Source of the DNA: Candidatus Eiseniibacteriota bacterium
Lineage (GTDB): Bacteria > Orphanbacterota > Orphanbacteria > Orphanbacterales > Orphanbacteraceae
DNA: 64,000 nt
Assembly: GCA_024276995.1 (NCBI GenBank)
Contig: JAJRWB010000050.1
Location: 80,359 to 144,358, forward strand
Direction of reading: 5' to 3'
The stretch's first letter is position 1, and each line of letters begins with the position of its first letter. The notes under the pieces are model-generated. The model saw only the letters and a program-made list of their open reading frames with translations, did no database searches and was not told where the DNA came from. The position numbers and the translations under genes were made by a program. Of the stretch, positions 7,822-31,258 are shown one piece after another.

Positions 7822-7834
7822 GAGGAATGTCCCG

Positions 7835-9890: not shown

Positions 9891-10039
9891 AAAGAAGAGC
9901 CGGCGGCCGAAACGCCCGCCGAACCGGAACCGTTGAAGACGATAAGCGTCGGAATGTAACATCTTCCTTCCGGCGGCGACCCAATAGGGAGAATGAACCT
10001 TCCGCCCCGACCCGGCGACTTCCCTCGGAGGATCGATGG

Positions 10040-10831: not shown

Positions 10832-10966
10832 CTTGCGTCATCGCGACCGGCGTGGTAAGCTGCCCGCGGCTCGCGATTCGCGGCGACGGCCGCCGACGCG
10901 AAGCGTCTTGGCCCCTTCTTAGATAACGGACAGATATATCGATATATACCTGAAAAACCGGGGAGA

Positions 10967-15612: not shown

Positions 15613-15788
15613 GGCGCCATTCTACCAGATTCGGGCCTTCCTCTCCCGGGGCGTCTCCCACGCCGGGCCTGCAGGGAAACCCGGTCGATGACGATGCTTC
15701 GAGCAGCACCGGTCGCTCCGGCCGGGCGGCCGCGCTGACCGCCGTGATGGAGATCGGCGGGCGAACGGGGTATGTTCCGGGAATAGTG

Positions 15789-16598
15789 ATGAACCACTCG
15801 CGCGGGAACGCCATGATATCGATCGACGGACTCCTCCACGGGAAGAACGCGCTCGTCACCGGGGCGGGAAGGAATATCGGCGCCGCCGTCGCGCGGGAGT
15901 TGGTTTCCCACGGCGCGACACTCTTCTTCACCGAGATCGACGAGACGCTCGTCGCCGAAACGAAGCGGTCTCTTCACGCCGCCGGTGTCGATGGGCGCGG
16001 TTTCGTCTCGGATATCACCAATCCGAAGGCGAACGACCTGCTCTGTTCCACGTTGAGAAACGAACGGATCGTGATCGACCTGCTCGTGAACAACGTGGGC
16101 GTCGACGGCGTGGAACAAGGGGGCGGACTCGACGGTCTCCGGCCCGAGGTGATCCGCTCACTGTTCGACACGAACCTGTTCGGTCCGCTCGACCTGACCC
16201 GACGAATCGCCGAGACAATGGTGGAGAAATCGACGGAAGGTTCCATTCTATTCCTGTCGTCGATCCATCAATGGACGGTGCGTACCCTGCCCGCATACAG
16301 CGCATCGAAGGCGGCGACGGGCATGATCATCCGGGAACTCGCCGTGGAACTCGCCCCGCACCGGATCCGGGTGAACGGGATCGCCCCCGGATACGTCGCA
16401 CTTGATCGCCGGAAACGGCCGGTCCGGCACAGGTACACCCTTCTCCACGGTACCGCCGTCGACCCCGCCCATATCGGGAGGGCCGCCGTCTACCTCTCCT
16501 CCGATTACTTCTCGAAACACACCACCGGAACGGTGCTCACCATCGACGGCGGCCTTTCGCTGAACAACCATCTCACCGGCGCCGCCGGGGGAAAGTGA
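15789..16598 (+). CDS. SDR-family short-chain dehydrogenase/reductase
   Basis: Rossmann motif GKNALVTGAGRNIG and catalytic YSASKAA. The start is ambiguous (GTG 15744, ATG 15789 or ATG 15813). Confidence 0.8.
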   Translation: MNHSRGNAMISIDGLLHGKNALVTGAGRNIGAAVARELVSHGATLFFTEIDETLVAETKRSLHAAGVDGRGFVSDITNPKANDLLCSTLRNERIVIDLLVNNVGVDGVEQGGGLDGLRPEVIRSLFDTNLFGPLDLTRRIAETMVEKSTEGSILFLSSIHQWTVRTLPAYSASKAATGMIIRELAVELAPHRIRVNGIAPGYVALDRRKRPVRHRYTLLHGTAVDPAHIGRAAVYLSSDYFSKHTTGTVLTIDGGLSLNNHLTGAAGGK

Positions 16599-17683
16599 TG
16601 GATTCCGGGGACGGGGCGCGACGTCTGCCGGTCACGCTCTGCATGATCAACCACAATGGAGAAGCGATCCTGGAACAGTCGGTGGGCGCGGCCGTGGCGC
16701 GCTCGCATCTGTTCAGCCGAATCATCATCGTGGACAACCGCTCGAGCGACGGCAGCATCGCCCTCGTGAAGAGGCTCTTCCCGTCGGTCCGGATCGTTTC
16801 GATGGACAAGAACCGGGGCGCCGCGGCGGCACGGAACAGGGCGTGGCGGGAAGCGGGGGGCGGCGGTACGATTCTCTTTATCGATAACGACGTTATTCTC
16901 GAGGACGGGTGCGTGGAACGCCTATCGGCCGCCCTCGACGATCACCCGGCCGCCGTGGCGGCGATGCCCGCGGTGCTATACGCCGCGGACCGGGAGCGGG
17001 TACAGTATGATGGGGCGGATTCCCATTATATCGGCGTCGTCTCTCTCCGTCATGCGGGGAGAGCGGCGGCGGAACTCGACGGCGCGGTCACGCCGATCGG
17101 TTCGCTCATCACGGCGTGTTTTCTCTTCGACGGCGACCGGTGGGGGAAAGACGAACCGTTCGATGACGCGTTCTTCATCTACCTGGAAGATCACGACCTG
17201 GGTCTGCGTATCCGTATGAGGGGAGGAACGATCCTCTCGGTGCCGGCGGCGCGCTGCCTCCACGGCGAAGGAGCGGTGGATCTATCGCTTCGCTCCACAG
17301 GGCGACAAACCCCTTTGCGAATAAAAGAGCTGGTCCGGAACCGGTGGCAAATCATCTGGAAGAACTACTCGGCGAAGACGATCGTTCTCCTCCTCCCGAT
17401 GTTCGCGATCTATGAAATCGCCCAGATCGGAGGGGTGATCGCCGGGGGATGGATCGGGCCGTATTCCCGCGCGGCGACGTGGTTCATCCGGAATTTGCGC
17501 TCCATCGCACGCCGGCGGCGGGAAGCGCAGCGAAGACGCGTCGTGCCGGACGGCGAGCTTCTCACCGGTGGACCGCTCCCATTCGCCGGGGAATGGAAAC
17601 CGGGCGGGCCCGAGCGGGTCGCGCGATCACTTCTCGATTCGTTCAGCCGCCTGTACTGGCGGATTATCCATCGGGCGGTGTAG
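16595..17683 (+). CDS. GT2-family glycosyltransferase
   Basis: GT-A N-terminal domain (IIIVDNRSSDGS..ILFIDNDV) with a C-terminal membrane-associated region. The start overlaps the SDR stop. Confidence 0.8.
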   Translation: MMDSGDGARRLPVTLCMINHNGEAILEQSVGAAVARSHLFSRIIIVDNRSSDGSIALVKRLFPSVRIVSMDKNRGAAAARNRAWREAGGGGTILFIDNDVILEDGCVERLSAALDDHPAAVAAMPAVLYAADRERVQYDGADSHYIGVVSLRHAGRAAAELDGAVTPIGSLITACFLFDGDRWGKDEPFDDAFFIYLEDHDLGLRIRMRGGTILSVPAARCLHGEGAVDLSLRSTGRQTPLRIKELVRNRWQIIWKNYSAKTIVLLLPMFAIYEIAQIGGVIAGGWIGPYSRAATWFIRNLRSIARRRREAQRRRVVPDGELLTGGPLPFAGEWKPGGPERVARSLLDSFSRLYWRIIHRAV

Positions 17684-17685
17684 CC

Positions 17686-19209
17686 GTGTCGATCAGCCCA
17701 CAGGGAAGAGCGACCGCCACGGCGACGCTCCTTATCGCCGCCGGGTTCTTCATCCGGCTTCACGGCCTCGGCGCCGAAAGCCTCTGGATCGACGAGGCGC
17801 ACACCGCCGCGGTCGCCCGCATGCCGGTGCTCGAATTGCTGAAAACGGTCGCCCTCGACAACCATCCTCCGCTCTCGTTTCTCGTGGAACGGGGGGCGCT
17901 CCTTCTCCTCGGCGATTCCGAGGCGGCGCTCCGCCTCCCATCGCTCCTCTTCGGAACGCTCACCATCGTGGCGGCCGGAGCGGTCGCGAAGCGTCTCTTC
18001 GGTGAAACGGCGGGATTGATCGTCGCGCTGATCACGGCGCTCTCCCCGTTCCAGCTCCATTATTCCCAGGAAGCCCGATCGTACGAGCTTCTCGCGCTCC
18101 TCACGGCGTGTTCATTCCTCTCTCTCATCCGCTTCGCCGAGCGGCCCACAGCGAAACGGGCGGCGACATACACGGCCGCCACGGTGCTTCTCCTCTACAC
18201 CCACTACTACGGCTTCTTCGCCGTGGCCGCGCAGAACGTTCTCTTCTTCGCGGGCGTCGCCGCCGGTGCGCGCGGATACCGGCGCGGTGTGGCGACGTGG
18301 CTCCTCGTGCAGGGCACGGTGCTTCTCCTTTTCGCGCCGTGGGCCGGCGCCGCGATCCGCGCCGTGAGTGATCGTCTCAGCACCGGCCCGATCCTTCCGC
18401 GTCCGACGGCGCGAAAACTGATCGGTCCGTTCATCTCGTGGGCCGGATCACCGCTCTCGTTTCTCCTTTTCGGCGTACTTTCGTTGAACGCGCTATCCCT
18501 TCCCTTCCGTTCGCCGAGTGACGACCGGACGATGAAATCGCTCTTCCTTCCCATCGGTGAACCGCCCGACAAGGAAAGACGCTCCGACCCTGCGCGGGTA
18601 TTCCTTCTCGCCGTCTGGATCACCATTTCCCTTTATGTACCCATCGTCATGTCGTGGTTCGTTTCTCCCTTCTTCGTCACCCGCTACGCCATCGGCGGTT
18701 CGATCGCCTTCTATATTCTCGTCGCCGCCGGAATCATCTCGATCGGAAGGAGCGGCGTGAGAAAGGCGGTGATCGGCGCGGTGATCCTCCTCTCCCTCGC
18801 CGGCATCCGGCGTTACCATCACGCCGTGAACAAGGAGCCGTGGCGGGAAATCGCCGCCATGGTCGACGCGCGGGCACAAGAAGGCGATCTACTCCTGTTC
18901 AACGCACCGTTCTGCGAGCCTCCCTTCGATTACTATTCGAAGCGGGCCGGCCTGAGACGGGCGAGCTTTCCCGACCCTTACGGCGCGGTGGAGCGATCCG
19001 ACCTCGGGAAGCTCGACACTCTCATCGCCCCATTCGACCGGATCTGGTTCATCGACGCGTACTCCCGCGACAAGGACGGTCTCGTTCGCGACCGGCTCGA
19101 CGAAGCGAGACGGTTCACCGCCGAAAACCTCTTCCCGAGCGAGGCGAGCGCCACGGGGAAGAAGGTGACCGTCGACGTCCGCCTTTATGACGGGGAAAAG
19201 ACGCCATGA
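17686..19209 (+). CDS. GT-C family membrane glycosyltransferase (GT39/GT83-like)
   Basis: GTG 17686, in frame with track ORF 17449..19209 and 3 nt after the GT2 stop, gives VSISPQGRATATATLLIAAGFFIRLHGLGAESLWIDEAHT.. This is a polytopic protein with a DE-containing first loop typical of ArnT/PMT-type enzymes. Confidence 0.7.
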   Translation: MSISPQGRATATATLLIAAGFFIRLHGLGAESLWIDEAHTAAVARMPVLELLKTVALDNHPPLSFLVERGALLLLGDSEAALRLPSLLFGTLTIVAAGAVAKRLFGETAGLIVALITALSPFQLHYSQEARSYELLALLTACSFLSLIRFAERPTAKRAATYTAATVLLLYTHYYGFFAVAAQNVLFFAGVAAGARGYRRGVATWLLVQGTVLLLFAPWAGAAIRAVSDRLSTGPILPRPTARKLIGPFISWAGSPLSFLLFGVLSLNALSLPFRSPSDDRTMKSLFLPIGEPPDKERRSDPARVFLLAVWITISLYVPIVMSWFVSPFFVTRYAIGGSIAFYILVAAGIISIGRSGVRKAVIGAVILLSLAGIRRYHHAVNKEPWREIAAMVDARAQEGDLLLFNAPFCEPPFDYYSKRAGLRRASFPDPYGAVERSDLGKLDTLIAPFDRIWFIDAYSRDKDGLVRDRLDEARRFTAENLFPSEASATGKKVTVDVRLYDGEKTP

Positions 19210-20474
19210 GCGGGGAGAAGATCCGGGTCGACACGATGATCGCCTACCTTTCACAGGCGTTTTACAAGCTCACCGGGTTTCTCATTCTTGCGCTCCTGGC
19301 GCGGTACCTTGCGAAGGACGACATGGGTGCGTTCTTCTTCGCCGCCACGTTCACCTCCCTCGGTGCACTTCTCACCGAGTTGGGAACGAACGCGCACCTG
19401 ACGAGAAGCATCTCCGCCGATCCGGCCGGAGCGCGCCGCGCCGTGAGCGACGTACTCTCTCTCAGGATTCCCCTGGCGGCGACCTGCTTCGTCGCGATCA
19501 CCCTCTTCGCACTTCTCTTCCGCCGGGAGATCTGGATCCTCGTTCTCCTCTCGTCGATCTACGCCCTGATCGAACAGATCTACCATTCCTTCGGCGCTCT
19601 CTTTCTCGGATCGAGGCGGGTCGTGTTCAACGTGACGAGCGGCATGATCTCCCGGGGACTTCTCGTGGCGCTCATCCTGTTCGCCGTGCGCCACCGGTTC
19701 GACGTGCTCGGCGTGGCGGCGTGCTATATCACCGCCGACACGGTGATGCTTGTCATCGCCGTCGCGTTGTCGCGCCGTATCGTTCCCGGCATCCGCCCGC
19801 ACTGGGCGCCCCGGGCCGCGCTCTCCCTCGCACACATCACGTTCCCGCTTTTCGCCATGCAGCTTCTCACGATGATCCATTTCCGGATCGACTCCGTGAT
19901 GATCGGATTCCTGAGGGACTATGCCGACGTGGCCACGTATGAATCGTCGTTCCGCCTTCTCGAGGCGTCACGCTTCATCGTTCTCCCGCTGAGCATGATC
20001 TTCTTTCCCCTCTTTTCCGAAATCGCGGGCAAGGGGAACTGGTACGAACTGAAGCGGTTCGTCTTTCGCCTCACCGGTGCGGCAGCGCTCGCAGGGGGGG
20101 TGATGGCGATAACGGTGATCGCCGGGGCGGCGGTGATCATCCCGGCGGTGTTCGGCAACGGATACGGTGAGTCGATTCCGGTCCTCCGGGTGCTCTTCCT
20201 GTCGGTGCCGATGATCTTCGCCGCCCGGGTCGCCACCTTCTCGGCGAACGCCATGCACCTGGAAAAAAGGTGCGTCCCTGTTCTGCTCGCTTGTACGATG
20301 ATCAACGTGGCGCTCAACGGAGCGGCCATTCCGATTTGGGGCGCCGGGGGCGCCGCGGTGACCACCGTGATTTCCGAAACGATTCTCGCGGTATGGCTGA
20401 TCGTTCTCGTCCGCAACGAAGCGGACCGGCGCATCGCCGGTGCGACGAATGGAGGTGCCGTCGGTGGCCGTTGA
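19206..20474 (+). CDS. polysaccharide/oligosaccharide flippase (MOP superfamily, Wzx-like)
   Basis: 422-aa 12-TM protein. The start overlaps the preceding stop by 4 nt (operon coupling). Confidence 0.7.
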   Translation: MSGEKIRVDTMIAYLSQAFYKLTGFLILALLARYLAKDDMGAFFFAATFTSLGALLTELGTNAHLTRSISADPAGARRAVSDVLSLRIPLAATCFVAITLFALLFRREIWILVLLSSIYALIEQIYHSFGALFLGSRRVVFNVTSGMISRGLLVALILFAVRHRFDVLGVAACYITADTVMLVIAVALSRRIVPGIRPHWAPRAALSLAHITFPLFAMQLLTMIHFRIDSVMIGFLRDYADVATYESSFRLLEASRFIVLPLSMIFFPLFSEIAGKGNWYELKRFVFRLTGAAALAGGVMAITVIAGAAVIIPAVFGNGYGESIPVLRVLFLSVPMIFAARVATFSANAMHLEKRCVPVLLACTMINVALNGAAIPIWGAGGAAVTTVISETILAVWLIVLVRNEADRRIAGATNGGAVGGR

Positions 20475-21504
20475 AACGCTTCATTTCGATTTCCACGGAA
20501 CCGCGGTGACGGTGACGACGAACGATGCCGAAACGGCGCGTTTCGTCGAGTCCGATTTTTCCTGGTTCCTCGTGGAAGAACCGCGCCGAGCCGGTCCCCC
20601 CTCGATCACTGTGGATCTTCATTTCAGCGAAGTTCCCTTCGACAGGATCCCCGAGGGAAAAGTGGCGGCGTACCACACGAAAGACGCCGTGGTATACAAG
20701 GAGGGGAGCACGGCGTTCTACGACTCGGGCGAGGCGCTCGTAATCTACGATTTCGCGGCGCGAAGGGCGGAGGTGCACAGCCTATCGAGAGACCTTCTCT
20801 TCGAGCGGGCGTACTTGATGATCTCGAGCCGCGTGGGCGACGCCATGGATCGGCGGGGACTTCACAGGATCCATGCCATGGGTGTTGCGTACCGGGGCCG
20901 CGGGGTGGTCTGCCTGATGCCTTCGGGCGGCGGCAAGACGACGCTCACGCTCTCGCTCATGAAAGACGAGCGCTTTCAGCTTCTTTCCGAGGAGATCCCC
21001 CTGGTCACGCGGCGGGGCGAGCTCCTTCCCTTCCCGATACGTATGGGCGTCCGCCCCGGCGAGAGCCTGTCGATTCCCGTTGAATTCCTGAAGCCCTTCG
21101 AGCGCACCCACTACGGCCCGAAGACACTCATCGATGTTCGCTGCTTCGCCGGGCGCATCGCCGGTATCACCGAACCGGGAATCGTATTCGCCGGAAAACG
21201 GATTCACTCCGACCGTCCCGCCGTGGTGCCCATTTCACGCATGAAGGCTTTCATGGCGCTTTACCGCTGCTGTGTCGCCGGCGTCGGGTTGCCGCAGATG
21301 CTCGAGTACATCCTCCGGTTCGACCTGTCCGATATCTTCCGGAACACCCCCGTGATTCTCTCGCGCCTGGTCGCGTCGATCCGGCTCATCGGTCGAAGCC
21401 AAACCTACGAGCTTCGCCTCGGGCGGGACCGCGAGGCGAATGCGCGCTGCGTGGCGGATTTCGTCGCGTCCATCTTTTCCGGCGAGAGGAGGGAGCGGAA
21501 GTGA
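20440..21504 (+). CDS. HPr-kinase-like P-loop kinase (HprK C-terminal-domain family)
   Basis: P-loop LMPSGGGKTTLTLSLM in an HprK/P-like C-domain context (GVAYRGRGVVCLMPSGGGKTT). It is embedded between the flippase and the GT4 gene with overlapping boundaries. Confidence 0.65.
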   Translation: MRRMEVPSVAVETLHFDFHGTAVTVTTNDAETARFVESDFSWFLVEEPRRAGPPSITVDLHFSEVPFDRIPEGKVAAYHTKDAVVYKEGSTAFYDSGEALVIYDFAARRAEVHSLSRDLLFERAYLMISSRVGDAMDRRGLHRIHAMGVAYRGRGVVCLMPSGGGKTTLTLSLMKDERFQLLSEEIPLVTRRGELLPFPIRMGVRPGESLSIPVEFLKPFERTHYGPKTLIDVRCFAGRIAGITEPGIVFAGKRIHSDRPAVVPISRMKAFMALYRCCVAGVGLPQMLEYILRFDLSDIFRNTPVILSRLVASIRLIGRSQTYELRLGRDREANARCVADFVASIFSGERRERK

Positions 21505-22685
21505 TCCGCCCGTTTCGAATCGCCATGGTGGCCGCCTGCCCCTTCCCGTGGCCCCGGGGAACGCCGATCCGGATCCTGCGCATGGCGGAGGTCCTGGCGG
21601 CGCGCGGACACGAGGTTCACGTGGTGACATATCATCACGGAAGAGATGACGACCGTTCGATCGATACCCTGCATATCCACAGGACACGGAAAGTCCCGTT
21701 TTGCGGGAAGTATGCTCCCGGCCCGACGTACGGCAAGCTCTTCCTTCTCGATCCCCTTCTCGCCCGACTTCTAGGGCGGGTCATCCACCGCCGGGGGATC
21801 GACGTGGTGCACGCCCATCACTACGAGGGTCTTCTCGCCGGCGCCTTTGCCGTGAGAAGGACGAAACTCCCCCTCGTCTACGACGCCCACACGCTGCTCG
21901 AATCGGAGCTTCCGTCGTACGGCCTCGGTCTTCCCCGGCGTGTGAAAAGAGCGCTCGGGCGCGCCATCGACGAGAGGCTTCCCCCCATGGCGAACCACGT
22001 CGTGAGCGTGACGGCGAGGATCCGGGAGAAGCTGATCGCCATGGGCCGAATCGACGAGGGGGCCGTTACCGTGGTGCCGAACGGCGTCGAGTTCGACCGC
22101 TTCGCGGCGATTTCGCCGGCGGGCGGCGGAAAAGACCGGTCGAACCGTCTCGTGTTCGCGGGGAATCTCGCCCCCTACCAGGGAATCGAGAAAATGCTCG
22201 CCGCGCTGCGCGACGTCGCCCGCGCCGTTCCCGGCGTGCGCCTCCGCTTGGTGACGAATTCCTCGTTCGCGCCGTACGAGCGCCTTGCGCGCGAACTCGG
22301 CGTCCGCCGCGCCGTCGAGCTGATCCCCTCGTCCTTCGCCGACCTTCCCCGCCAACTCTCCGAGGCTGCGGTGGCGCTCAACCCGCGCACCGGATGCGAC
22401 GGCATTCCGCAGAAGCTTCTCAACTATATGGCGGCCGGTCTGCCCACCGTTTCCTTCGAGAGTTCCGCCCCGTGTGTCGATCATGGGAAGACCGGCTGGG
22501 TCGCCCCGGACGGCGACACCGCCGCCTTCGCCGCCGGGATCGTCCGCCTGCTGGGCGACGGCGATCTGGCGGGGCGTCTCGGCGCGGGTGGGCGTGAATT
22601 CGTCCGTACCCGCCACACGTGGGAGGAGAGCGCGGCGGCGCTCGAGAGGATCTACGACGATCTCACAGGAGGCGATGCGCGCTGA
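21501..22685 (+). CDS. GT4-family glycosyltransferase
   Basis: GT-B fold with typical GT4 C-terminal region (LVFAGNL..LNPRTGCDGIPQKLLNYMAAGLPTV). The start overlaps the kinase stop (ATGA). Confidence 0.85.
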   Translation: MIRPFRIAMVAACPFPWPRGTPIRILRMAEVLAARGHEVHVVTYHHGRDDDRSIDTLHIHRTRKVPFCGKYAPGPTYGKLFLLDPLLARLLGRVIHRRGIDVVHAHHYEGLLAGAFAVRRTKLPLVYDAHTLLESELPSYGLGLPRRVKRALGRAIDERLPPMANHVVSVTARIREKLIAMGRIDEGAVTVVPNGVEFDRFAAISPAGGGKDRSNRLVFAGNLAPYQGIEKMLAALRDVARAVPGVRLRLVTNSSFAPYERLARELGVRRAVELIPSSFADLPRQLSEAAVALNPRTGCDGIPQKLLNYMAAGLPTVSFESSAPCVDHGKTGWVAPDGDTAAFAAGIVRLLGDGDLAGRLGAGGREFVRTRHTWEESAAALERIYDDLTGGDAR

Positions 22686-22744
22686 ACCGGTTCTCGCCCA
22701 GGCTGTTTCTGAGGAGGTTCGTGCTCGCCACGTCCTTCCCCCCG

Positions 22745-24301
22745 ATGCTCCAGCTCTACACGCTGGCGTACACGGCGGTCACCCGCATCGCCCTTCGTCT
22801 TTTCCGCCGCTACGACGCCGTGAGAGCGGTCTACCTCCGCCGCGGGGGCGCCAGAGGCGAGATCCTCCCGCTGGTGAGCGACATCGATTTCGCCCTGATC
22901 AGTGAGAACCTCGACGACGCCGACCGCAACGAACTTCTCGATGGCTACGAGGTCCTCGTGCGGCGAACCACTTTGCTCGACAAGACCCTCGAGATCTACG
23001 ACGAAGAACAGTTCTTCGACGCGTATCGCACGAACGATTACGCCCGCTACCGTTTCGCCGAGGGAAAGAAAACGTGGAAACTCCTCTACGGCCGTGACTA
23101 CGTCGCCGAGCTGCCCGACCTGCCGGACGAAGAGATGGCGGCCGGATACTATACCGAGATCAAGGTGTGGTGGGCGCTCTTCGCGTGGCGCTTCTTCCGG
23201 AGGGGAAAGTACTCCGGCGAACGGGTGACGGAAAACAACGCCTGCTTCAAGACGGTGAGCGAAATTCTCAAGATGGAGACGGCGCTGACGAGAGGGGAGT
23301 GGATCGTTTCGCGCGCCGAGGCGCTCGAACGGGCGGCGGAATTCCTGGATGGAGCCGAGCGCGAGTTCGTCCGGGCGCTGAGCCGGATCGCCGGGCACCG
23401 CTTCCGGCCCAGGCGAAACGGGGTGGTGGACGAGACGCTTTCCTTTCTTCTCGCGAGGCTCGATCGGCTCTACGGAGAACTGCGCTCCCACCCGATCGCC
23501 TCACCCCTGGACGAGCGCTCCCATCTGCTCGACTACGAGAGGAGCGAATCGCCGGGCGCGAAGGAAGAGGATCGCTTCTTCGAAAGGACACTGTCGTTCA
23601 TCGAAAAGAGGTGGGCGGTCCCCGTGCGGGCCGCCCGCGCCGTGCCGGGAGCATACTTCAACATCGACGAGCGTCTCCTCGTCCTCGAAATCGACGGCCA
23701 CAGGCCGCCGCCGGTGAGCGACCTCCTCGCGCTGAACGACCACCTTGCATCGGAGACGGCCCATGTGCGCGGGCGGATCCCGATTTTCCTGCGCATCGGG
23801 AACGCGGCTCTTCGCATCGACCCGGATGACCTGATGCGAAGCTGGCAATCGATCCTCTTTCCACCGTGCAACCCGGACGTTTTCGATCTTCTCGCCCGCG
23901 ACGACTCGCTCGTCGCCGGCCCGCCGTCACGCTCGCCGGCACCGCCGGCCGGTCCGGCGTGGACGCCGCTGGTGCGCCACTTCTTCGATGAAGAGGAGAT
24001 GCTCTTCTACGAACTTCTCCGCAACAAGGCGGTGTATAAATTGAACACGCTCGACTTCTGCCGCATTTTCTGGAAAACAGCGCAGCTCGTCGTGCTGAAC
24101 CGATCGGCTTCGGAGGGAACGATCCGCTACGCCATGACACCCGCGGCCATATCGAGGGAACTCTCCCGCATCGGCGCGGCGATACCGTCGAACCTCCTCG
24201 CCCTAGACCCGATCTATGCGGAGGCGATCTTTGGCGGGGAGAGCGACGTGGGGGAGTTCATTCCGCCGGCGCTCGACTACCTCATGGAGATCGAACGATG
24301 A
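22745..24301 (+). CDS. nucleotidyltransferase-domain protein (Pol-beta-like NTase fold) with large C-terminal domain
   Basis: Internal ATG (MLQLYTLAY..) of track ORF 22619..24301. NTase signature G-x-RG-[ED]-x-x-P-x-SDIDFAL (GGARGEILPLVSDIDFALIS). 519 aa. Confidence 0.6.
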   Translation: MLQLYTLAYTAVTRIALRLFRRYDAVRAVYLRRGGARGEILPLVSDIDFALISENLDDADRNELLDGYEVLVRRTTLLDKTLEIYDEEQFFDAYRTNDYARYRFAEGKKTWKLLYGRDYVAELPDLPDEEMAAGYYTEIKVWWALFAWRFFRRGKYSGERVTENNACFKTVSEILKMETALTRGEWIVSRAEALERAAEFLDGAEREFVRALSRIAGHRFRPRRNGVVDETLSFLLARLDRLYGELRSHPIASPLDERSHLLDYERSESPGAKEEDRFFERTLSFIEKRWAVPVRAARAVPGAYFNIDERLLVLEIDGHRPPPVSDLLALNDHLASETAHVRGRIPIFLRIGNAALRIDPDDLMRSWQSILFPPCNPDVFDLLARDDSLVAGPPSRSPAPPAGPAWTPLVRHFFDEEEMLFYELLRNKAVYKLNTLDFCRIFWKTAQLVVLNRSASEGTIRYAMTPAAISRELSRIGAAIPSNLLALDPIYAEAIFGGESDVGEFIPPALDYLMEIER

Positions 24302-25463
24302 ACGAGGAGAAACGTCTCACCACGTCGGTGGTGGTGGTCACGAAGGACCGCCCCCGCCTGCTCGGCGGACTCCTTCGTTCACTCGTCGCCCAGACGCTTC
24401 CTCCCGACGAAGTGCTGGTGGTGGACAACGGATCGTCGAGAAGCTACAATGAAGTGTTTCGCGAATTCGCGCCGCTTCTCCCGCTCCGAACGGTGGTGGA
24501 GACGAAGCCGGGCATTCCCGCGGCGAGAAACCGCGGCGTCCGGGAAGCGACGGGAGAGATCATCCTGTTCACCGACGATGATTGCGCCGCCGATCCGCGA
24601 TGGGTGGAATGTCTGGTGAAACCGTTCTACAGGAACCCCTATATCGGCGCCGTGGGCGGGGAGATCGATTCTGTCGAGAAGGCGGGCGGTATCGTGGAAG
24701 AGTTCTGCATTTCGGAAACTCTCATGCGAATGGGAAAACGGCCGGACGGCGGGCGATGATCATCGACATCTCGAAAAGCGGCTACCAGCGCGGCTACCTC
24801 CCCGGGAAGGGCATCGGTGTGTTCCACCCCTTCTTCGCCACGGCGAACGCGGCGTTCCGAAAGGAGGCGATCGAAAAGGCGGGCGGCTTCGACCCGAAGT
24901 GCTCCACCGGAGAGGATGTCGATCTTTCGATCCGTGTCGCCCGCGCCGGGTACGAGCTCTGGTTCGAACCGTCGGCACGAATCGTCCATTTCCACCGCTA
25001 TACGCTTAAAGGACTTCTCGTGCAGTGGTATCGGTACGGTCTCGGCCACGCGTATCTCTTCAAGAAGCATTCGCGCCGGAAGAGGCTCGAGTTCTACCGG
25101 TACGACCTCTCACCGAAGAACACCGACCCGTTCGGCATCGCCCGGGTGGCGCGCTTCCCCTTCCCCGTTCACGGTATGATCTTCCTGAGCAGCTTCCACT
25201 TCATGAACGCCGGCGCTCTCGCGGGCGTGGCCGCGTGGCGATTCCTCTCCCCCGCCGCGGCGGCCGTTCCTCTCGCCGTGGCGCTCATCGCCGGATGCTG
25301 GTACTTCTCGATCCGCTTCGACCGGCGCCGCCCGCTCAAATCGACGATCCTCTCCGCCTTGCGGTATGCGGCGGACGGCGCCTACGTACTCGGAGGATTC
25401 GCCGGCGGGATCCGCGAGAGGATGATCTACATCGAGGCGACACGCACCAGACGCCGCCCCTGA
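24298..25463 (+). pseudogene. GT2-family glycosyltransferase, apparent frameshift near 24735-24758
   Basis: ORF 24298..24759 carries the GT-A N-terminus (VVVVTKDRP..VLVVDNGSS..ILFTDDDCAADPRW). ORF 24582..25463, in another frame, carries the GT2 C-terminus (GKGIGVFHPFFATANAAFRKEAIEKAGGFDPKCSTGEDVDLSIRVARAGYEL) plus TM helices. Together they make one normal-length GT2. Confidence 0.5.
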
Positions 25464-25637: not shown

Positions 25638-26693
25638 ATGAAGTTCCGCGCCCTCGTGATCCTCGGCCTGATCGCCGTGACGGCGATTCCCGCCGCAGGA
25701 GCGCAACGGAAAGTGCTCGTCGAGTACTTTTCGAACGATACGTGACCGTACTGCGACGACATCGATCCGGGCATGGAGGCCCGTTTCGGATCGATGTACG
25801 CGGGGCAGGTTGCTCCGATCGAGTGGCACGTCAACTGGCCGAACTCCGCCGACCCGGCCTACCTGTATAATCCTACGGAGGTAGAGGACCGGCGAACTTG
25901 GTACGTCCCGGTGACCTACGTTCCCCAGTTCCGTTTCGACGGGAAGGATATCATCCAGTATAACGGCGTCGACACGACCGCATGGTTCGCCGATTTCGAA
26001 AGAGTGGTCGACAGCCTCCTGCTTCTTTCGAGTCCCATCGCGGTCGATCTCATCCACACGCGGGACGCCGATTCGGTGTATATCACCGTGGTGGTGACCG
26101 TCGAAAACGTACCGAGCGGATCGCTCAACCTCTTCGTAACCGCTTCCGAAGAATGGTATCGCGACTCCCCGTTCGGAAAGCAGTGGTACGTCTTCAGGGA
26201 TATGCTCACCGGCGCCACGGGCGACCCGATTTCGCTCACTACGCCGGGGGAGATCGTATCGATGCAGTACTCTTATCCGATCGATACGCTCTATCATCCC
26301 GCCAGGCTGATCACCACCGCCTGGGTGCAGAAGTCGAGCACCAAGAAGGTGCTCAACTCGGCGAGCGAACTCGTTCCTCTCTACACGGTGGGCGTGCCGG
26401 GGAGCGAGGTGCCGGTGCGGATCGTTCTCGATCAGAACACGCCGAACCCGTTCAACCCGACTACCTCTATCGGCTTCTCCCTCGACAGGGAAAGTCGCGT
26501 GCGGTTATCGGTCTACTCGCAGGCGGGACGGCTCGTCACGAACCTCGTGGACGGCCGGGTCACGCCCGGTTCCCACTCGGCGACGTGGAACGGCACGGAC
26601 CTCACCGGGAAGGCGGTGGGAAGCGGCGTCTACTACTACCGCCTCGACACGGACAAGAACTCTCTCACGGGGAAAATGATCCTCGTTCGCTGA
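25638..26693 (+). CDS. secreted thioredoxin-fold candidate selenoprotein (UxxC motif) with FlgD-Ig/T9SS-type C-terminal sorting domain
   Basis: ATG 25638 with a perfect AAGGAGG RBS 7 nt upstream gives MKFRALVILGLIAVTAIPAAGAQRKVLVEYFSNDT-[TGA 25743-25745]-PYCDDIDPG. This continues in frame into track ORF 25773..26693. The TGA sits where the first Cys of a Trx CxxC motif would be (VLVEYFSNDT-U-PYC), and a cis-Pro region (VTYVPQFRFDGKD) follows. The C-terminus is QNTPNPFNPTTSIGFSL..SGVYYYRLD..KMILVR. Confidence 0.7.
25761..25795 (+). promoter_or_regulatory. SECIS-like stem-loop 15 nt downstream of in-frame UGA
   Basis: AUCGAUCC-GGGC-[AUGGAG]-GCCC-guuuc-GGAUCGAU has an 8-bp lower stem, a 5-nt 3' bulge, a 4-bp upper stem and a 6-nt G-containing apical loop. 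Read directly from the sequence. Confidence 0.5.
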
Positions 26694-26792: not shown

Positions 26793-26864
26793 GCATGTTG
26801 TGAATACCTGTGGAATTCACCCGCTCCCGAAAGCCGCAATAGACTCGAACAAAGGAGGAGTACG

Positions 26865-27941
26865 ATGACGAGACGGGCATGGATGGTCCCTGCTCTCCTG
26901 GCACTGCTGGCGCTTCCCGCCACTGCCGCCCAGCGGACGGGTGTTCTCTACGAGGACTTCACCAATGTAGGGTGACCCACGTGCGAAACGATTCGCGACA
27001 GCATGGACGCCATCCTGATGTCGCGTTTCCCGGGGCAGGTTGCTCCGGTACGATACCACGTGAACTGGCCCGACGGGACGGACCCGTATTACGCTTTCAA
27101 CCCGACACAGGTGAACGAGCGGAGAACGTATTACGACTCGACGGTCAACGGCGTGCCGATGATGTTCTTCGAGGGGCAGTATCTCTCCCAGGTGTGGGAC
27201 GGCTCCTTCGCGACCTACACCGACTGGTACAACTGGGTGCGCGCCACCCTCGACAGTCTGTACCTCATCCCAAGCCCCGTGAGGATCAATCTCCAACAGG
27301 TGAGGGACAACGATTCGGTCTATGTCGCCATCGACGTGATTTCCGAAGATACTCTCGGAAGCGCCCCGAACATTTTCGTCTGCTACGAAACGACGTGGGA
27401 CCGGTATCCCGGGAAGGGGAAGTATCGCTACGTCTTTAGGAGCATGGACCCGAACTCCGTCGGGGGAACTCTTCTCGGACTCACCTTACCGGGCGATTCG
27501 GTTCACGTCGAATACACGTATTACATGGATCCCGCGCTGAACAAGAGCCGCATGATGACCACAGTGTGGGTGGAAAGCAACAACGTCGGGGGCGGAGTGC
27601 TCAACTCGATCTCCGAGGAGGTGCCCGCCTACACGGTCGGTGTGCCCGGAGGCGCCGCACCGGTGCGGATCGTGCTCGATCAGAACGCGCCGAACCCGTT
27701 CAATCCGACTACGACGATCGGCTACTCCCTCGACAAGGAGAGCCTCGTGCGCCTTTCGGTCTATTCGCAGGCGGGACGGCTCGTTACGAATCTCGTGAAC
27801 AGCCACATGCCGGCCGGATCGTACTCCGTTCCCTGGAACGGCACCGACCTTTCCGGCAACCCCGTGGGGAGCGGCGTCTACTACTACCGCCTCGACGCGG
27901 AGAAGAGTTCGCTCACCAACAAGATGATCCTCATCCGGTAA
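26865..27941 (+). CDS. secreted thioredoxin-fold candidate selenoprotein paralog 2 (UxxC motif) with the same C-terminal sorting domain
   Basis: Track ORF 26784..26975 ends at TGA 26973-26975, and ORF 27003..27941 continues in the same frame. ATG 26865 with RBS AAAGGAGGA gives MTRRAWMVPALLALLALPATAAQRTGVLYEDFTNVG-[TGA]-PTCETIRDS.. The TGA aligns exactly with the TGA of paralog 1 (G-U-P-T-C vs T-U-P-Y-C). The C-terminal domain is about 85% nt-identical to paralog 1. Confidence 0.7.
26994..27025 (+). promoter_or_regulatory. SECIS-like stem-loop 18 nt downstream of in-frame UGA (paralog 2)
   Basis: CGCGACA-[GCAUGGACGCCAUCCUGA]-UGUCGCG is a 7-bp stem whose loop contains an AUGG/CCAU sub-helix. 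It lies at the same relative position as in paralog 1. Confidence 0.4.
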
Positions 27942-28078: not shown

Positions 28079-29425
28079 ATGAAGCTCATTTCATTCAGGG
28101 AGATTTTCCGCTTCTACGTTCCATTGCTGCTCACGTCGCAAATGATGACGCTCTCCGGACCGCTCATCAATGTAGCGGTCGGCCGTGCATCGGACCCGAA
28201 GCTCGATCTCGCCGCCTACTGGATCGGCTTTTCCATCCTCATGTTTATTGAAAGCCCCTGCCTGATCAGCCAGCAGGTGACGGCCACGCTGACCACGGGA
28301 TATCGTTCACTATTCAAAATTTTCTTCACGGCCCTCGCCGTCGGCATCTTGGCCGGGATCACCTCCGTCCTCGTCGCCGTCACACCGCTTGGCGACATCG
28401 TCTTCCTCAGGTTGATCCACACGACCGCCGAGGTGGCCGCTCGGGCGGGGCACGTGCTTCTGCTCCTCTCACCGCTTCCGCTGCTCATCGCCCTGCGCGG
28501 CGTGGGGAACGGGCTTGCCATACGGGAAAGGAAGACGGTGATCATCGCGCGGGCCACTGCGTTTCGCGTGCTCGTCCTCGCGTCGGTGGTCGGCGCGGTG
28601 GTGGCGCTCAACACCGGGTCGGGCGCCCTCGCCGGCGCGGCGGCACTCCTCACCGGGCTCGTGGTGGAGACGACGCTCGTTCTCATCGGCGTCATGCCGT
28701 TCGTCCGCCGATTCCGCGCCGCACGGGACGGCGACAACACCGACCTTTCGATCGCCGATATCTTCCGTGTCGCCATGCCCCTCGCCGTCGCCGCGTATGT
28801 GTGGACCGTCTCGAGACCGATCGTAAACGGCATCCTCGGACGCCTTCCCGATCCGGTGCTCGCCCAGGCGGGATTCGGCGTGGTGGCACCCGTGGTGCTC
28901 CTCACCTGTTCCCCCCTCTGGGCGCTGCAGAACGTGTCGCTCATCCTGGTGAAGACGAAAAGCGACCTCGCTCGGGTGCTCCGTTTCTCCGTGGTGCTGG
29001 CGGTTTTCTTCTCCATCGCCATCTTCATCGTTCTCATCACGCCGCTGCGCGACCTGGTGCTCGAGGGCGCATTCACCCTTTCACCGGAAATGGTCCGGGA
29101 GGTGACGCCCGCCCTCTTCCTGATCGTGCTCGAACCGTATTTTCTCGGGTGGCGCTCCATCGCACAGGGTCTCCTGATGAAAGCGAAGAGGACCGGCATC
29201 ATCGGATCGGTTTCGCTGATCAAGCTGGTGGTGATCCTGGCGGTGGGTATCTGGTTCGCCCTCTTCCGGCCCGGTGTGAACGGCACGGTGCTCGGTACGG
29301 CGCTTTTCATCGGCGGCGATTTGCTCGATGCCCTCTTTTGCGGATGGCAGGCGTCGAGGATCGTCCGGCGCGGGCCTCTCCTCGACGAACCGGCGACCGT
29401 GGGGGGCATGGCAATTCGCCCGTGA
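28079..29425 (+). CDS. polytopic membrane protein, MATE/MOP-superfamily-like transporter
   Basis: Internal ATG MKLISFREIFRFYVPLLLTSQMM.. About 12 predicted TM helices. The family assignment is tentative. Confidence 0.5.
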   Translation: MKLISFREIFRFYVPLLLTSQMMTLSGPLINVAVGRASDPKLDLAAYWIGFSILMFIESPCLISQQVTATLTTGYRSLFKIFFTALAVGILAGITSVLVAVTPLGDIVFLRLIHTTAEVAARAGHVLLLLSPLPLLIALRGVGNGLAIRERKTVIIARATAFRVLVLASVVGAVVALNTGSGALAGAAALLTGLVVETTLVLIGVMPFVRRFRAARDGDNTDLSIADIFRVAMPLAVAAYVWTVSRPIVNGILGRLPDPVLAQAGFGVVAPVVLLTCSPLWALQNVSLILVKTKSDLARVLRFSVVLAVFFSIAIFIVLITPLRDLVLEGAFTLSPEMVREVTPALFLIVLEPYFLGWRSIAQGLLMKAKRTGIIGSVSLIKLVVILAVGIWFALFRPGVNGTVLGTALFIGGDLLDALFCGWQASRIVRRGPLLDEPATVGGMAIRP

Positions 29426-29459
29426 GACACCGCCGAGGCCGTCGCTCTCGGCTCCACTC

Positions 29460-30476
29460 CTACCTCGCCCCCGCCGACCTCCTTCTCCTGCAAATAAGAA
29501 GGTAGAGGAAGAAGGGGCCGCCCAGCAACGCGGTGACGATCCCCACGGGCAGTTCGCTTCCCCCCACCACATTCCTTGCCACCGCGTCGCACGCCACGAG
29601 AAAGGGGCCGCCGAGAAGGAGCGAGCCGGCGATCAACTTGCCGTGACTCTCGCCGAGAAGGAGGCGGAGCACGTGGGGTACCACGAGGCCGACGAAACCG
29701 ATCGGCCCGCACGCCGCCACCGTCACGGCGGTGAGAATCGATGCGACGAAGTAGAGCTGCTTCCTCAGGTAATCTACAGGCACTCCCCTGCTCCTGGCGA
29801 TCTCCTCGCCGCATAGAAGAAGATCGAGTTCCCGCCTGTTGATCAGCAAGATGGCGACGCCGTAGAGAAGCGCGGGAAGGAGCGCCAGGGCGGGAGCGTA
29901 ACCGATGGTCTCCAGGTTTCCCATAAGCCAGCGGACCATGCGGAAGGTTTGGGTGAAGTCGGCGGCGTACTGGGCGAAAAGAAGCAGGGAAGAGAAGAAG
30001 TAGGAGAGCGCCACTCCGGCGAGGAGGAGATGAAGCGTGGAGAGTCCGCTCCCGGAGCGGGCGAGACGGTAGAGGATGATCACCACGAGAAACGCTCCAC
30101 CCAGGGCGAACAGGGGCGTCGCCTCGAAGCTCGACATCATCAGCCCTCCCGAAAGACCGGTGAGCACCGCCACGGAGACGCCGAACGCCGCGCCCGACGA
30201 TACGCCAAGGGTGAACGGCGTGGCGAGGGGATTGCGAAAGAGCGTCTGGAACGACATTCCGGCGAGAGAAAGCGCCGCGCCGGCGAACAGACCGAGGAGA
30301 AGACGGGGAACGCGCAGCGTCCAGAAGATGAACAGCCGCGTCGTGCTGCCGCCGCTGAACAGGTCTCCCGGGCCGATCGACTCGGGGCCGATGAACGGCG
30401 CCGCGAAAAGGACCGCCAGAAAGAAAAGAAAGAAGGCGGTGAGCGTCCTTCCCGGGCGGCGGACCGGCGCCATCAC
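29460..30476 (-). CDS. ABC transporter permease, FecCD/BtuC family (iron-siderophore/cobalamin type)
   Basis: Typical FecCD motifs (LLLGLFAGAALSLAGMSFQTLFRNPLATPFTLGVSSGAAFG.. and C-terminal GPIGFVGLVVPH). The start overlaps the ATPase stop. Confidence 0.85.
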   Translation of the reverse strand: MMAPVRRPGRTLTAFFLFFLAVLFAAPFIGPESIGPGDLFSGGSTTRLFIFWTLRVPRLLLGLFAGAALSLAGMSFQTLFRNPLATPFTLGVSSGAAFGVSVAVLTGLSGGLMMSSFEATPLFALGGAFLVVIILYRLARSGSGLSTLHLLLAGVALSYFFSSLLLFAQYAADFTQTFRMVRWLMGNLETIGYAPALALLPALLYGVAILLINRRELDLLLCGEEIARSRGVPVDYLRKQLYFVASILTAVTVAACGPIGFVGLVVPHVLRLLLGESHGKLIAGSLLLGGPFLVACDAVARNVVGGSELPVGIVTALLGGPFFLYLLICRRRRSAGAR

Positions 30477-31258
30477 CCTTCCTCCCCGCCGATACGCGGA
30501 AGCACCATGGGACGACCGCTGACCGGGTGCGCCGCGAGGAGGAATTCGCTGCCGTACACTTCGCGCAGCACGCCGGCGGTGGCCACTTCACCGGGGACGC
30601 CGTCGCTCACCACCCGCCCTTCACGCAGAGCGACGATCCGGTCGGCGCAGACGCTGGCGCGGTTGATGTCGTGGGTCACCACCAGGAGGGCGATCCCCCA
30701 CCGGCGGCGCGCCCCCTCCATGAGGCGGAAGATCTCGTCCTTCCCCGGGGGATCGAGGAAGGTGGTCGGTTCGTCGAGGAGGAGGATCGAGGCGTCCTGG
30801 GCGATCGCGGCGGCGAGGAGAACCTTCTGCTGCTCTCCGCCGCTCAGTGTGGCGAAGACCCGATCCGCCATCGCGTCGATACCGACCTCCTCCATCGCCG
30901 CGGCGGCGCGACGCCTGTCTTCTTCCGTCTGGCGGCCCCAGGTGGAGAGGCGGGGATAGCGCGCCTGGAGTACGATCTCGCCGGCGGTGAACGGAATGTC
31001 CGGCTCGCGCGCCTGCGGCACGTAAGCGGCGATTCGTGCCGCCGTACGCGCATCGAGATCGCTTCTATCCCTACCGTCGAGAAAGAGGGTCCCCCGCGGC
31101 GGAGGGAGCACGCCCGCGGCATGACGGAGAAGGGTCGACTTCCCGGCGCCGTTCGGGCCGATGAGGGCGACGAACTCACCCTTGCCGACCGACAGGGAGA
31201 CATGGTCCAAAATCAGCGCACCCGCCGGGGCGTACGAGAGGTTTCTCACGTCGAGCAT
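30473..31258 (-). CDS. ABC transporter ATP-binding protein (FepC/BtuD-like)
   Basis: Walker A GPNGAGKST, signature LSGGEQQKV, Walker B ILLLDEPT. Confidence 0.9.
   Translation of the reverse strand: MLDVRNLSYAPAGALILDHVSLSVGKGEFVALIGPNGAGKSTLLRHAAGVLPPPRGTLFLDGRDRSDLDARTAARIAAYVPQAREPDIPFTAGEIVLQARYPRLSTWGRQTEEDRRRAAAAMEEVGIDAMADRVFATLSGGEQQKVLLAAAIAQDASILLLDEPTTFLDPPGKDEIFRLMEGARRRWGIALLVVTHDINRASVCADRIVALREGRVVSDGVPGEVATAGVLREVYGSEFLLAAHPVSGRPMVLPRIGGEEG

Follow-up and report, generated by a model that had tools for sequence, protein, structure and literature searches.

In lasso-peptide gene clusters, a kinase of the HprK family phosphorylates the C-terminal Ser (PMC8498205, PMC6993621), and such clusters code for the kinase alone or for the kinase and a nucleotidyltransferase (NTase) (PMC8498205). 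In the case of pseudomycoidin, the aminoglycoside-NTase-like protein PsmN is required for the addition of one or two hexoses to the Ser phosphate, and mutation of the aspartates of PsmN abolishes this addition (PMC6993621). We analysed a 64,000-nucleotide stretch of contig JAJRWB010000050.1 of Candidatus Eiseniibacteriota bacterium (assembly GCA_024276995.1), hereafter the window, whose numbering is used for all positions. It contains a kinase (20440-21504, + strand) and an NTase (22619-24301, +) of the same two superfamilies, encoded in an operon of nine tightly packed plus-strand genes that spans 15744-25463 without real gaps, among genes for glycosyltransferases (GTs) and a flippase. The conservation of the pair with GTs and the fusions of NTase relatives to GT domains are pointing to an undescribed phosphate-dependent step in the making of exported glycoconjugates.

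The likeness to the PsmK/PsmN pair, and to PadeK, of the pseudomycoidin and paeninodin systems lies in the presence of an HprK-superfamily kinase and an aminoglycoside-NTase-like protein in one cluster, in the kinase being possibly found without the NTase, and in the presence of a membrane exporter. With PsmK/PsmN, phosphorylation by the kinase comes first, and addition of the hexose or hexoses to the phosphate depends on the NTase. In contrast with those clusters, the window is devoid of lasso cyclase, protease, PqqD-like protein and precursor peptide, and its pair is found among GT2, GT4, GT-C and Wzx proteins, with the NTase fused or adjacent to GTs. Lasso core genes (cyclase, B1/B2, precursor) were found neither in the operon nor in the related loci. 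The proteins themselves also differ from PsmK and PsmN, the kinase reaching only 22 bits against a cut-off of 200 for HprK_rel_A/B and the NTase, of ~540 residues, having an extra C-terminal half. The initial annotation of this DNA had described HprK-related kinase/NTase neighbourhoods as lacking an assigned function; this does not hold for lasso clusters, where PsmK and PsmN, from other protein families than those of the window, have been partly assigned (PMC8498205, PMC6993621). The logic of a kinase and NTase pair is thus itself known, and what is new is the protein families, the glycan rather than peptide context and the physical integration with a split GT2. In the library searched, we found no paper joining HprK with glycosyltransferase, nucleotidyltransferase and flippase.

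The kinase is a soluble protein of 354 residues, with an alternative start at ATG 20449. Its catalytic core (20860-20994, +) is composed of an LHRIHAMG motif, the P-loop LMPSGGGKTT (residues 159-168, nt 20914-20943) and an acidic LLSEE motif, a layout that we take to resemble the LHG..GxSGxGKSE..DD arrangement of HprK/P. Within the family, R143, H145, G163, G165 and K166 are invariant and S183 is nearly so, and LLSEE is the family consensus for the acidic pair after the P-loop. Even at E<=10, Pfam gives no match for the protein, and its only NCBIfam matches are to HprK-related kinases B (22.8 bits) and A (21.7 bits), whose cut-offs are 200; these matches to the A/B families (TIGR04352/TIGR04355) are limited to residues 130-199, i.e. 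the P-loop region. Among 54 aligned relatives, 48 weakly match HprK_rel_A (best E 5e-10) and 29 HprK_rel_B (best 3e-8), eight match the HPr kinase family TIGR00679 (best E 3.9e-4), six match ScmC and a single one matches PEPCK (E 1.8e-3). The HprK-C-like kinase of the initial annotation therefore stands in so far as no other P-loop family claims the protein in hidden Markov model (HMM) searches, but the scores remain below the thresholds of the named HprK families, including Hpr_kinase_C (PF07475) and TIGR00679, and the kinase is thus not HprK/P by family. It shares with HprK/P the C-terminal-domain fold and a P-loop followed by a conserved acidic pair. Unlike HprK/P, it has no Pfam match to Hpr_kinase_N, its operon is devoid of ptsH, and we found no phosphotransferase system (PTS) gene among the operon genes scanned.

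The AlphaFold model of the kinase is confident (pLDDT 93.4), and its two-domain fold matches that of PEPCK over the whole length, with 288 residues aligned, including the N-terminal domain. Unlike PEPCK, the kinase has only about two-thirds of the full size (354 vs >500 residues), and it has no Pfam or NCBIfam match to the PEPCK family. We conclude that it represents a new family within the PEPCK/HprK P-loop superfamily, with an HprK-like core and a reduced-PEPCK two-domain shape. Judging from the profile matches, it is a sister family of the HprK-related kinases A and B rather than a member of either. The family comprises >138 clusters and, in the searches made, exceeds that of the NTase in size; a metagenome scan with the kinase profile yielded only five loci, most of them short.

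The NTase, also soluble, has an active-site motif, GGARGEILPLVSDIDFAL (residues 76-93, nt 22844-22897), followed by a strand that contains LLDKT, the whole occupying 22844-22987 (+). Both motifs quoted in the initial annotation, one in the kinase and the other in the NTase, are present. Throughout 40 sequences of the family, R75, G76, A78, D88, D90 and D121 do not vary, and D121, in the LLDKT strand, would be the third catalytic carboxylate. The segment RGGARGEILPLVSDIDF conforms to the signature of the Pol-beta superfamily, hG[GS]-x(9-13)-Dh[DE]h plus a third carboxylate. The window protein has no match in Pfam or NCBIfam. Among its 40 relatives, 21 weakly match NTP_transf_2 (best E 0.005) and 12 match Polbeta (best 4e-4), and no other NTase family of Pfam is matched. 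The family profiles of the kinase and the NTase gave nothing meaningful against the sequences of the PDB, the best match being to the P-loop of guanylate kinase (E 0.009).

The structural model of the NTase is confident as well (pLDDT 88). In this predicted model, residues ~45-290 form an AadA-like two-domain unit that superposes on AadA, with the NTase and helical domains in one chain. Its best structural matches, and the sole ones that span both domains, are the aminoglycoside adenylyltransferases AadA and AAD(9), to which sequence identities are 14-16% (ANT(3'')(9)/AadA and AAD(9)). With its extra C-terminal half, the protein is twice as long as these enzymes. Its C-terminal ~270 residues comprise an alpha/beta unit and a helical bundle and match no solved structure. 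The Pol-beta fold initially proposed is thus borne out, while the extra domain, given as 400 residues, shrinks to an unexplained C-terminal part of ~270. An internal duplication was considered and rejected, as a comparison of residues 40-295 with 296-560 by hhalign gave a probability of 4.5% and none was detectable. Unlike AadA and AAD(9), the NTase is encoded in a biosynthetic operon, without a resistance context, and members of its family are fused to GT2 domains.

There are three candidate starts for the NTase: GTG 22619, which implies a 67-nt overlap with the preceding GT4 gene, CTG 22682, with a 4-nt overlap with the GT4 stop and AGGAGG 9 nt upstream, and GTG 22721. The public annotation of an identical protein gives 526 residues, which implies the last of them. 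The residues encoded upstream of 22721 (FSPRLFLRRF) are conserved in homologues, and the protein may actually begin at a non-canonical codon. When 1.84 billion representative sequences were searched with the NTase profile, 648 relatives were identified at E<=1e-3, including 148 at E<=1e-30. In summary, neither the kinase nor the NTase can be filed in any named family, and both are clearly within known superfamilies. The invariance of R143, H145, G163, G165 and K166 and the acidic pair in the kinase, and of G76, D88, D90 and D121 in the NTase, suggests that both would be catalytically competent.

The two genes that follow the NTase code for the halves of a single GT2. The N-terminal half (GT2N; 24298-24759, +) is an open reading frame (ORF) of its own for a soluble protein of 153 residues with a DDD motif, which matches positions 1-114 of the 168-position Pfam profile Glycos_transf_2 (1.9e-24). 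The C-terminal half (GT2C; 24756-25463, +), encoded by the last gene of the operon, has 235 residues, a GEDVDL motif and a hydrophobic C-terminal region (residues 162-188), and matches positions 71-195 of 198 of Glyco_trans_2_3 (1.3e-14). The two genes are joined by an ATGA overlap at 24756. GT2N is a separate ORF in loci L001, L003, L005 and L007-L016, and the separate GT2C ORF is conserved too. As the GT2 is split in every related locus of the same type as the window (type I), the split is not a sequencing frameshift. Such a natural division of a GT-A fold into a soluble N-terminal half with DxD and a C-terminal half with GEDxD and a membrane segment, found across several phylum-level labels, is unusual.

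Fusions account for this arrangement. In five proteins (P0296, P0299, P0301, P0303 and P0314) and in locus L036, GT2N alone is joined in one chain to the NTase C-terminus, which makes the fusion the exact counterpart of the NTase and GT2N gene pair of the window; in L036, the fusion gene is followed by a separate GT2C gene with a 4-nt overlap. Other fusions, in P0182 and in L003 and L017, join the NTase to a whole GT2; they include second paralogues of an Eisenbacteria metagenome-assembled genome (MAG) and of an unclassified MAG. In most loci, the gene directly after that of the NTase codes for a GT, be it a split GT2 (type-I loci), a whole GT2 (L029), a GT1 (seven Acidobacteriota loci) or a GT4 (L028). 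We saw no kinase-NTase fusion, and the two proteins are rarely encoded side by side, whereas NTase-GT fusions are common. The NTase-GT2N fusions explain the conserved encoding of the GT2 as two ORFs, and they speak for a single working assembly of the NTase, the soluble half of the GT2 and its membrane-anchored half. A 791-residue minus-strand ORF of the window (28216-30591) was considered as a relative of the NTase-GT2 proteins and discarded, since it matches no family and overlaps a gene for an ANKH-like membrane protein on the opposite strand; that it has the same length as the Eisenbacteria NTase-GT2 fusion is a coincidence.

We determined the conservation of the pair from loci anchored on the NTase, which were collected by a one-genome-per-species scan (22 loci) and exact-protein look-ups, the window being added. 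Of the 23 loci whose flanks are long enough, 21 encode a kinase homologue at most 10 kb from the NTase. The two exceptions are L020 and L017, and the genome of the latter has its full cassette at L014. The pair is always accompanied by GTs and usually by a membrane exporter. Its carriers are MAGs and metagenomes only, with at least five phylum-level labels; when we looked for a cultured host via the Acidobacteriota-type NTase, every match with an organism name was labelled as a MAG.

Cassettes of the window type encode GT2a, sometimes a GT-C, then Wzx, the kinase, GT4, the NTase, GT2N and GT2C, and often a short-chain dehydrogenase/reductase (SDR). They are present in MAGs labelled Gemmatimonadota, Candidatus Eisenbacteria, Ignavibacteriales, Spirochaetia and unclassified bacteria, and organism-named matches include Thermodesulfobacteriota. 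The kinase-GT4-NTase trio singled out in the initial annotation is indeed conserved elsewhere, in ~12 type-I loci, and the kinase-NTase pairing reaches distant loci of Acidobacteriota. There, the NTase is 26-31% identical to that of the window and is encoded with a GT1 (UDPGT-like), a 256-residue protein with a DDDD motif and the kinase; in one of these loci (L025), the genes of the NTase, GT1 and kinase adjoin that of an ABC_membrane+ABC_tran exporter. The order in L029 is GT2, NTase, GT2, kinase and ABC exporter (ABC_membrane+ABC_tran). Two loci have the kinase without a detectable NTase, namely L004 of Omnitrophica, where it is found with GT2s and a flippase, and L030, whose order is kinase, GT4, Wzm-like permease, ABC ATPase and sulfotransferase. 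The exporter varies between loci, with Wzx replaced by ABC_membrane+ABC_tran proteins (L025 and L029) or by a Wzm/Wzt-like ABC-2 pair (L030). The stable core is the kinase, usually the NTase, at least one GT and mostly a membrane exporter. No second copy of the cassette was found within the window.

Several loci have further genes in or beside the cassette. Genes for a Gfo/Idh/MocA oxidoreductase and then an SGL (gluconolactonase-like) protein are found 0 to a few kb downstream of the cassette in L003 (12790-14953), L012 (17051-19210) and L014 (12500-14901). Only the Gfo/Idh/MocA homologue is seen in L013 (9055-10002), at the contig end, and L003 has a gene for an AGE-type epimerase upstream of the cassette. 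The window has no homologue of Gfo/Idh/MocA, SGL or AGE-type epimerase. In L036, from one MAG, two radical-SAM/SPASM genes (6287-8531) are inserted between those of NTase-GT2N and GT2C and that of the kinase; their best matches are generic maturases, ScmF among them.

The operon of the window starts with a classical SDR gene (15744-16598, +; Pfam adh_short 1.4e-38), the product of which has glucose 1-dehydrogenase and FabG-like proteins as its best NCBIfam matches, all under the cut-off; SDR homologues are encoded within or near the cassette in L003, L005, L012 and L013. The next gene (16595-17683, +) codes for GT2a, a GT2 with one C-terminal hydrophobic helix (residues 262-283; Pfam Glycos_transf_2 5.3e-21), and keeps this position in type-I loci. 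It is followed, at about 17686-19209 (+), by the gene of a PMT_2/ArnT-like membrane GT of the GT-C fold with many hydrophobic segments (Pfam PMT_2 1.1e-11), whose start codon is uncertain. A GT-C is part of the cassette in L003, L013 and L014 and is encoded a few kb away in L001. Then come a multi-spanning flippase of the Wzx/MOP type (19206-20474, +; Pfam Polysacc_synt 6.5e-19) and the kinase. The GT4, of the GT-B fold, is encoded between the kinase and the NTase (21501-22685, +; Pfam Glyco_transf_4 2.5e-27 and Glyco_trans_1_4 9.6e-21). Its best NCBIfam match, TIGR04063 (98.7 bits), is under the cut-off of that family, and among solved structures PimA (4.7e-12), MshA and BshA come nearest, with scores of only 36-49 bits. 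For the GT2s, solved structures gave generic GT2 matches only. These matches are too weak for an acceptor to be named from them. Hydrophobic segments are absent from the kinase, GT4, NTase, GT2N and SDR, and there is one such region each in GT2a and GT2C.

The gene order initially described, GT2, GT-C, flippase, kinase, GT4, NTase and GT2, is thus correct as to order and positions, except that the last GT2 is made up of two ORFs; in addition, it is the SDR gene that opens the operon. Five junctions are 4-nt xTGA overlaps (SDR/GT2a, GT-C/Wzx, kinase/GT4, NTase/GT2N and GT2N/GT2C), and the Wzx and kinase genes overlap by 35 nt from GTG 20440 or 26 nt from ATG 20449. The overlaps of 4-35 nt initially reported apply to these junctions; GT2a and GT-C are separated by a 2-nt gap, given a GT-C start at GTG 17686, and the extent of the NTase overlap depends on its start. 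A divergently oriented gene for a TrmB-like methyltransferase is found upstream of the operon, and an AT-rich intergenic spacer followed by genes for secreted Omp28-like proteins is found downstream. Within the operon, promoter-like and terminator-like matches stay at the level of shuffled controls, which is compatible with one transcription unit but no proof of it. With a MOP/Wzx flippase and a GT2, a GT4, GT2 halves and a GT-C encoded in one operon, the locus has the make-up of a Wzx-dependent one; there is no initiating phosphoglycosyltransferase, Wzy polymerase or chain-length regulator among the nine products.

We tentatively favour, as a leading candidate that falls short of being probable, a cytoplasmic relay of kinase, NTase and GTs that would tailor a lipid-linked glycan. 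The operon would build a lipid-linked glycoconjugate at the cytoplasmic face of the membrane for export by the Wzx flippase, and on its outer side the GT-C probably transfers the exported glycan or further lipid-carried sugars. As soluble cytoplasmic tailoring enzymes, the kinase and NTase would act in sequence with the GTs. Firstly, the PEPCK/HprK-fold kinase would phosphorylate a hydroxyl group, either on the glycan under construction or on its first sugar. The AadA-like NTase, docked on the two-piece GT2, would then activate this phosphate with an NTP or an NDP-sugar. Addition of the next sugar by the GT2 would yield a phosphate-bridged sugar, a phosphoglycosylation with the same outcome as that of PsmK/PsmN on pseudomycoidin, and Wzx would finally export the product. 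We infer the substrate, the order of the steps and the chemistry of this relay. The more general proposal of the initial annotation, that the pair phosphorylates or nucleotidylylates a sugar or a lipid carrier, may hold in this form.

What is directly observed is the conservation of folds and active sites, the absence of hydrophobic segments from both enzymes, their co-location with GTs and, in most loci, with exporters, and the NTase-GT2 fusions. The pair belongs to the same two superfamilies as the lasso pair but is found with enzymes and exporters of lipid-linked glycans and without peptide machinery or a conserved small ORF, which is why we favour the glycan relay. We also count in its favour that the coupling of the NTase to a GT is consistent, that the exporter types, which vary from locus to locus, are all known for lipid-linked glycans, and that the pairing persists at 26-31% NTase identity with the other genes changed. 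By analogy, the nearest structural relatives of the NTase, which act on hydroxyls of sugar-like molecules, would fit such a role. The loci with a kinase and no detectable NTase (L004, and L030 with its neighbouring sulfotransferase) suggest that the phosphate alone can be an end product, and they parallel the kinase-only lasso clusters.

A number of points weigh against this glycan relay. No computation identified the substrate, and the operon does not encode an initiating phosphoglycosyltransferase. As far as could be tested, the NTase of the window appears to be outside the PsmN family, and even for PsmN the role of the NTase fold in phosphate hexosylation is open, with no in vitro activity as of 2025 (PMC11912497). 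The full-length likeness of the kinase to PEPCK, a small-molecule enzyme, would equally suit a small soluble substrate, and so would the SDR, Gfo/Idh/MocA, SGL lactonase-like and AGE-type epimerase proteins encoded in or beside the cassettes.

Indeed, the activation of a soluble sugar is nearly as likely as a relay on a lipid-linked glycan. In this Leloir- or Kennedy-type scheme, itself a possibility that we hold with reserve, the substrate of the kinase would be a free sugar or polyol, which the SDR may have made, the NTase would use an NTP to convert the phosphorylated product to an NDP-donor, and the fused or adjacent GT2 would use this donor, all with non-canonical folds. Kinase, NTase and GT would then act in the textbook order, and the gene order agrees with it. 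In GT-A enzymes, it is the N-terminal half with the DxD motif that binds the nucleotide-sugar, and it is to this half that the NTase is fused. The fold of the partner GT varies by lineage while the NTase stays, as expected of the maker of a shared donor, and the match of the kinase model to PEPCK over both domains suggests a closed cleft for a small substrate. The recurrence near the cassettes of the SDR, Gfo/Idh/MocA, SGL and AGE-type epimerase genes is in line with the same scheme. However, it does not readily account for the loci where a kinase is encoded and no NTase is detectable (L004 and L030), nor for a kinase and an NTase that are never fused and rarely adjacent when NTase-GT fusions are common. 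Moreover, the nearest HMM relatives of the kinase (HprK_rel_A/B, ScmC and HprK) are directed to or associated with peptides or proteins, not sugars, and to our knowledge the sugar-1-phosphate nucleotidylyltransferases and anomeric kinases described so far have other folds.

The creation of phosphate-linked substituents by a kinase and an NTase-fold protein has precedents in the Kennedy/Lic pathway, with LicA choline kinase, LicC cytidylyltransferase and LicD phosphotransferase, and in the mammalian O-mannose pathway, with POMK kinase and the ribitol-phosphate transferases FKTN and FKRP, and GT-A and PMT-type GT-C enzymes are involved. The protein families are all different from those of these pathways, and the operon is devoid of LicD, LicC and TagF-type transferase. 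The site of action of POMK, FKTN and FKRP is the secretory lumen; the kinase and NTase studied here, without hydrophobic segments, are probably cytoplasmic.

In a further reading, more novel and likewise short of probable, the kinase, the NTase and the two-piece GT2 would form a membrane-docked relay with chemistry not yet described for glycan assembly, the NTase passing its product directly to the GT2 half fused to it. This chemistry would be either the formation of a phosphate-bridged sugar via a nucleotide-activated acceptor phosphate, or the activation of building blocks by a PEPCK-fold kinase and an AadA-fold NTase that stand in for the canonical sugar kinase and pyrophosphorylase. If true, it would also explain how the lasso enzyme PsmN works.

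It is unlikely that the cassette serves for phosphoglycosylation of a protein or of a ribosomally synthesised peptide modified post-translationally (RiPP) or similar compound, in which the kinase would act on Ser or Thr, the NTase and GTs would build a glycan and the transporter would export the product. Every named HMM relative of the kinase (HprK_rel_A, HprK_rel_B, ScmC and HPr kinase) either targets peptides or proteins or occurs in RiPP cassettes, PsmK and PsmN act on a peptide, and both GT2s of the window have the mycofactocin glycosyltransferase MftF as their best NCBIfam match, under its cut-off. In addition, the ABC half-transporters of L025 and L029 are as similar to peptide exporters as to glycolipid flippases, and L036 has its radical-SAM/SPASM pair, with ScmF among the top matches. 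L036 is the sole locus hinting at a peptide- or cofactor-type substrate, and the SPASM genes are confined to it. The HprK-related kinase A and B families have neighbourhoods with PqqD-like proteins or peptide-maturation genes; in the neighbour lists of 11 loci, we found no PqqD-like or peptide-maturation genes, apart from the radical-SAM/SPASM genes of L036, and no lasso cyclase or protease gene in any list. The small PqqD-like ORF that the initial annotation had suggested looking for does not accompany the cassette. More generally, there is no conserved small ORF outside the large genes across 31 loci, all candidates being antisense or other-frame shadows of large genes, and the intergenic gaps of L025, L029 and L036 yielded no convincing precursor gene. 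The operon of the window is contiguous from gene to gene, and the Wzx and Wzm/Wzt exporters and the GT-C are hallmarks of lipid-linked glycan pathways.

Lastly, it is most improbable that the kinase and NTase are regulators that switch the neighbouring GTs by Ser phosphorylation and Tyr/Thr AMPylation, in the manner of HprK/P and GlnE/DrrA/MNT-type enzymes on proteins, since the best structural matches of the NTase, and the sole two-domain ones, are small-molecule aminoglycoside NTases, a reversible regulator would hardly be expected in covalent fusion with one half of a catalytic GT2 fold, the GT family changes while the pair persists, and there are no toxin-antitoxin features or matches to PADLOC defence models (none for the kinase, GT4, NTase, either GT2 half or GT2a).

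Two other regions of the window deserve mention. Downstream of the operon, genes at 25638-26693 (+) and about 26864-27941 (+) code for paralogous secreted Omp28-like proteins with FlgD_ig/T9SS-type tails. Each has an in-frame TGA at the same place, just past the signal peptide and in a thioredoxin-like UxxC motif (VLVEYFSNDT-TGA-PYC, with the TGA at 25743-25745, and VLYEDFTNVG-TGA-PTC), and ORF lists show these genes only downstream of the TGA. At 14 nt past the first of these codons begins a strong hairpin (-25.3 kcal/mol, z -2.8), and the one past the second is weaker (z -1.0). The two proteins are candidate selenocysteine proteins. There are no tRNA genes in the window. Far upstream, at 9638-11971 (+), genes for a DUF547 protein and then an EgtD-like histidine methyltransferase dependent on S-adenosylmethionine (Methyltransf_33, E 3e-107) precede those of two sensor histidine kinases; the DUF547 and EgtD-like genes appear unrelated to the operon.

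The conservation of the pair and the fusions are solid, and the system, whose function we infer, is directly testable. Two unnamed enzyme families now have confident structural models, a conserved partner and a pathway context, which is enough for the design of assays. The NTase-GT2 fusions and a GT-A fold made of two polypeptides are unusual in themselves, and the parallel with PsmK/PsmN ties the cassette to a question of RiPP biosynthesis, namely how an NTase-fold protein causes the hexosylation of a phosphate. Soils and sediments are rich in Gemmatimonadota, Eisenbacteria, Acidobacteriota and Ignavibacteriales, lineages that are poorly cultured and whose surface chemistry is largely uncharted. 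A conserved phosphate-dependent glycan module would give a concrete entry to the surface chemistry of these lineages.

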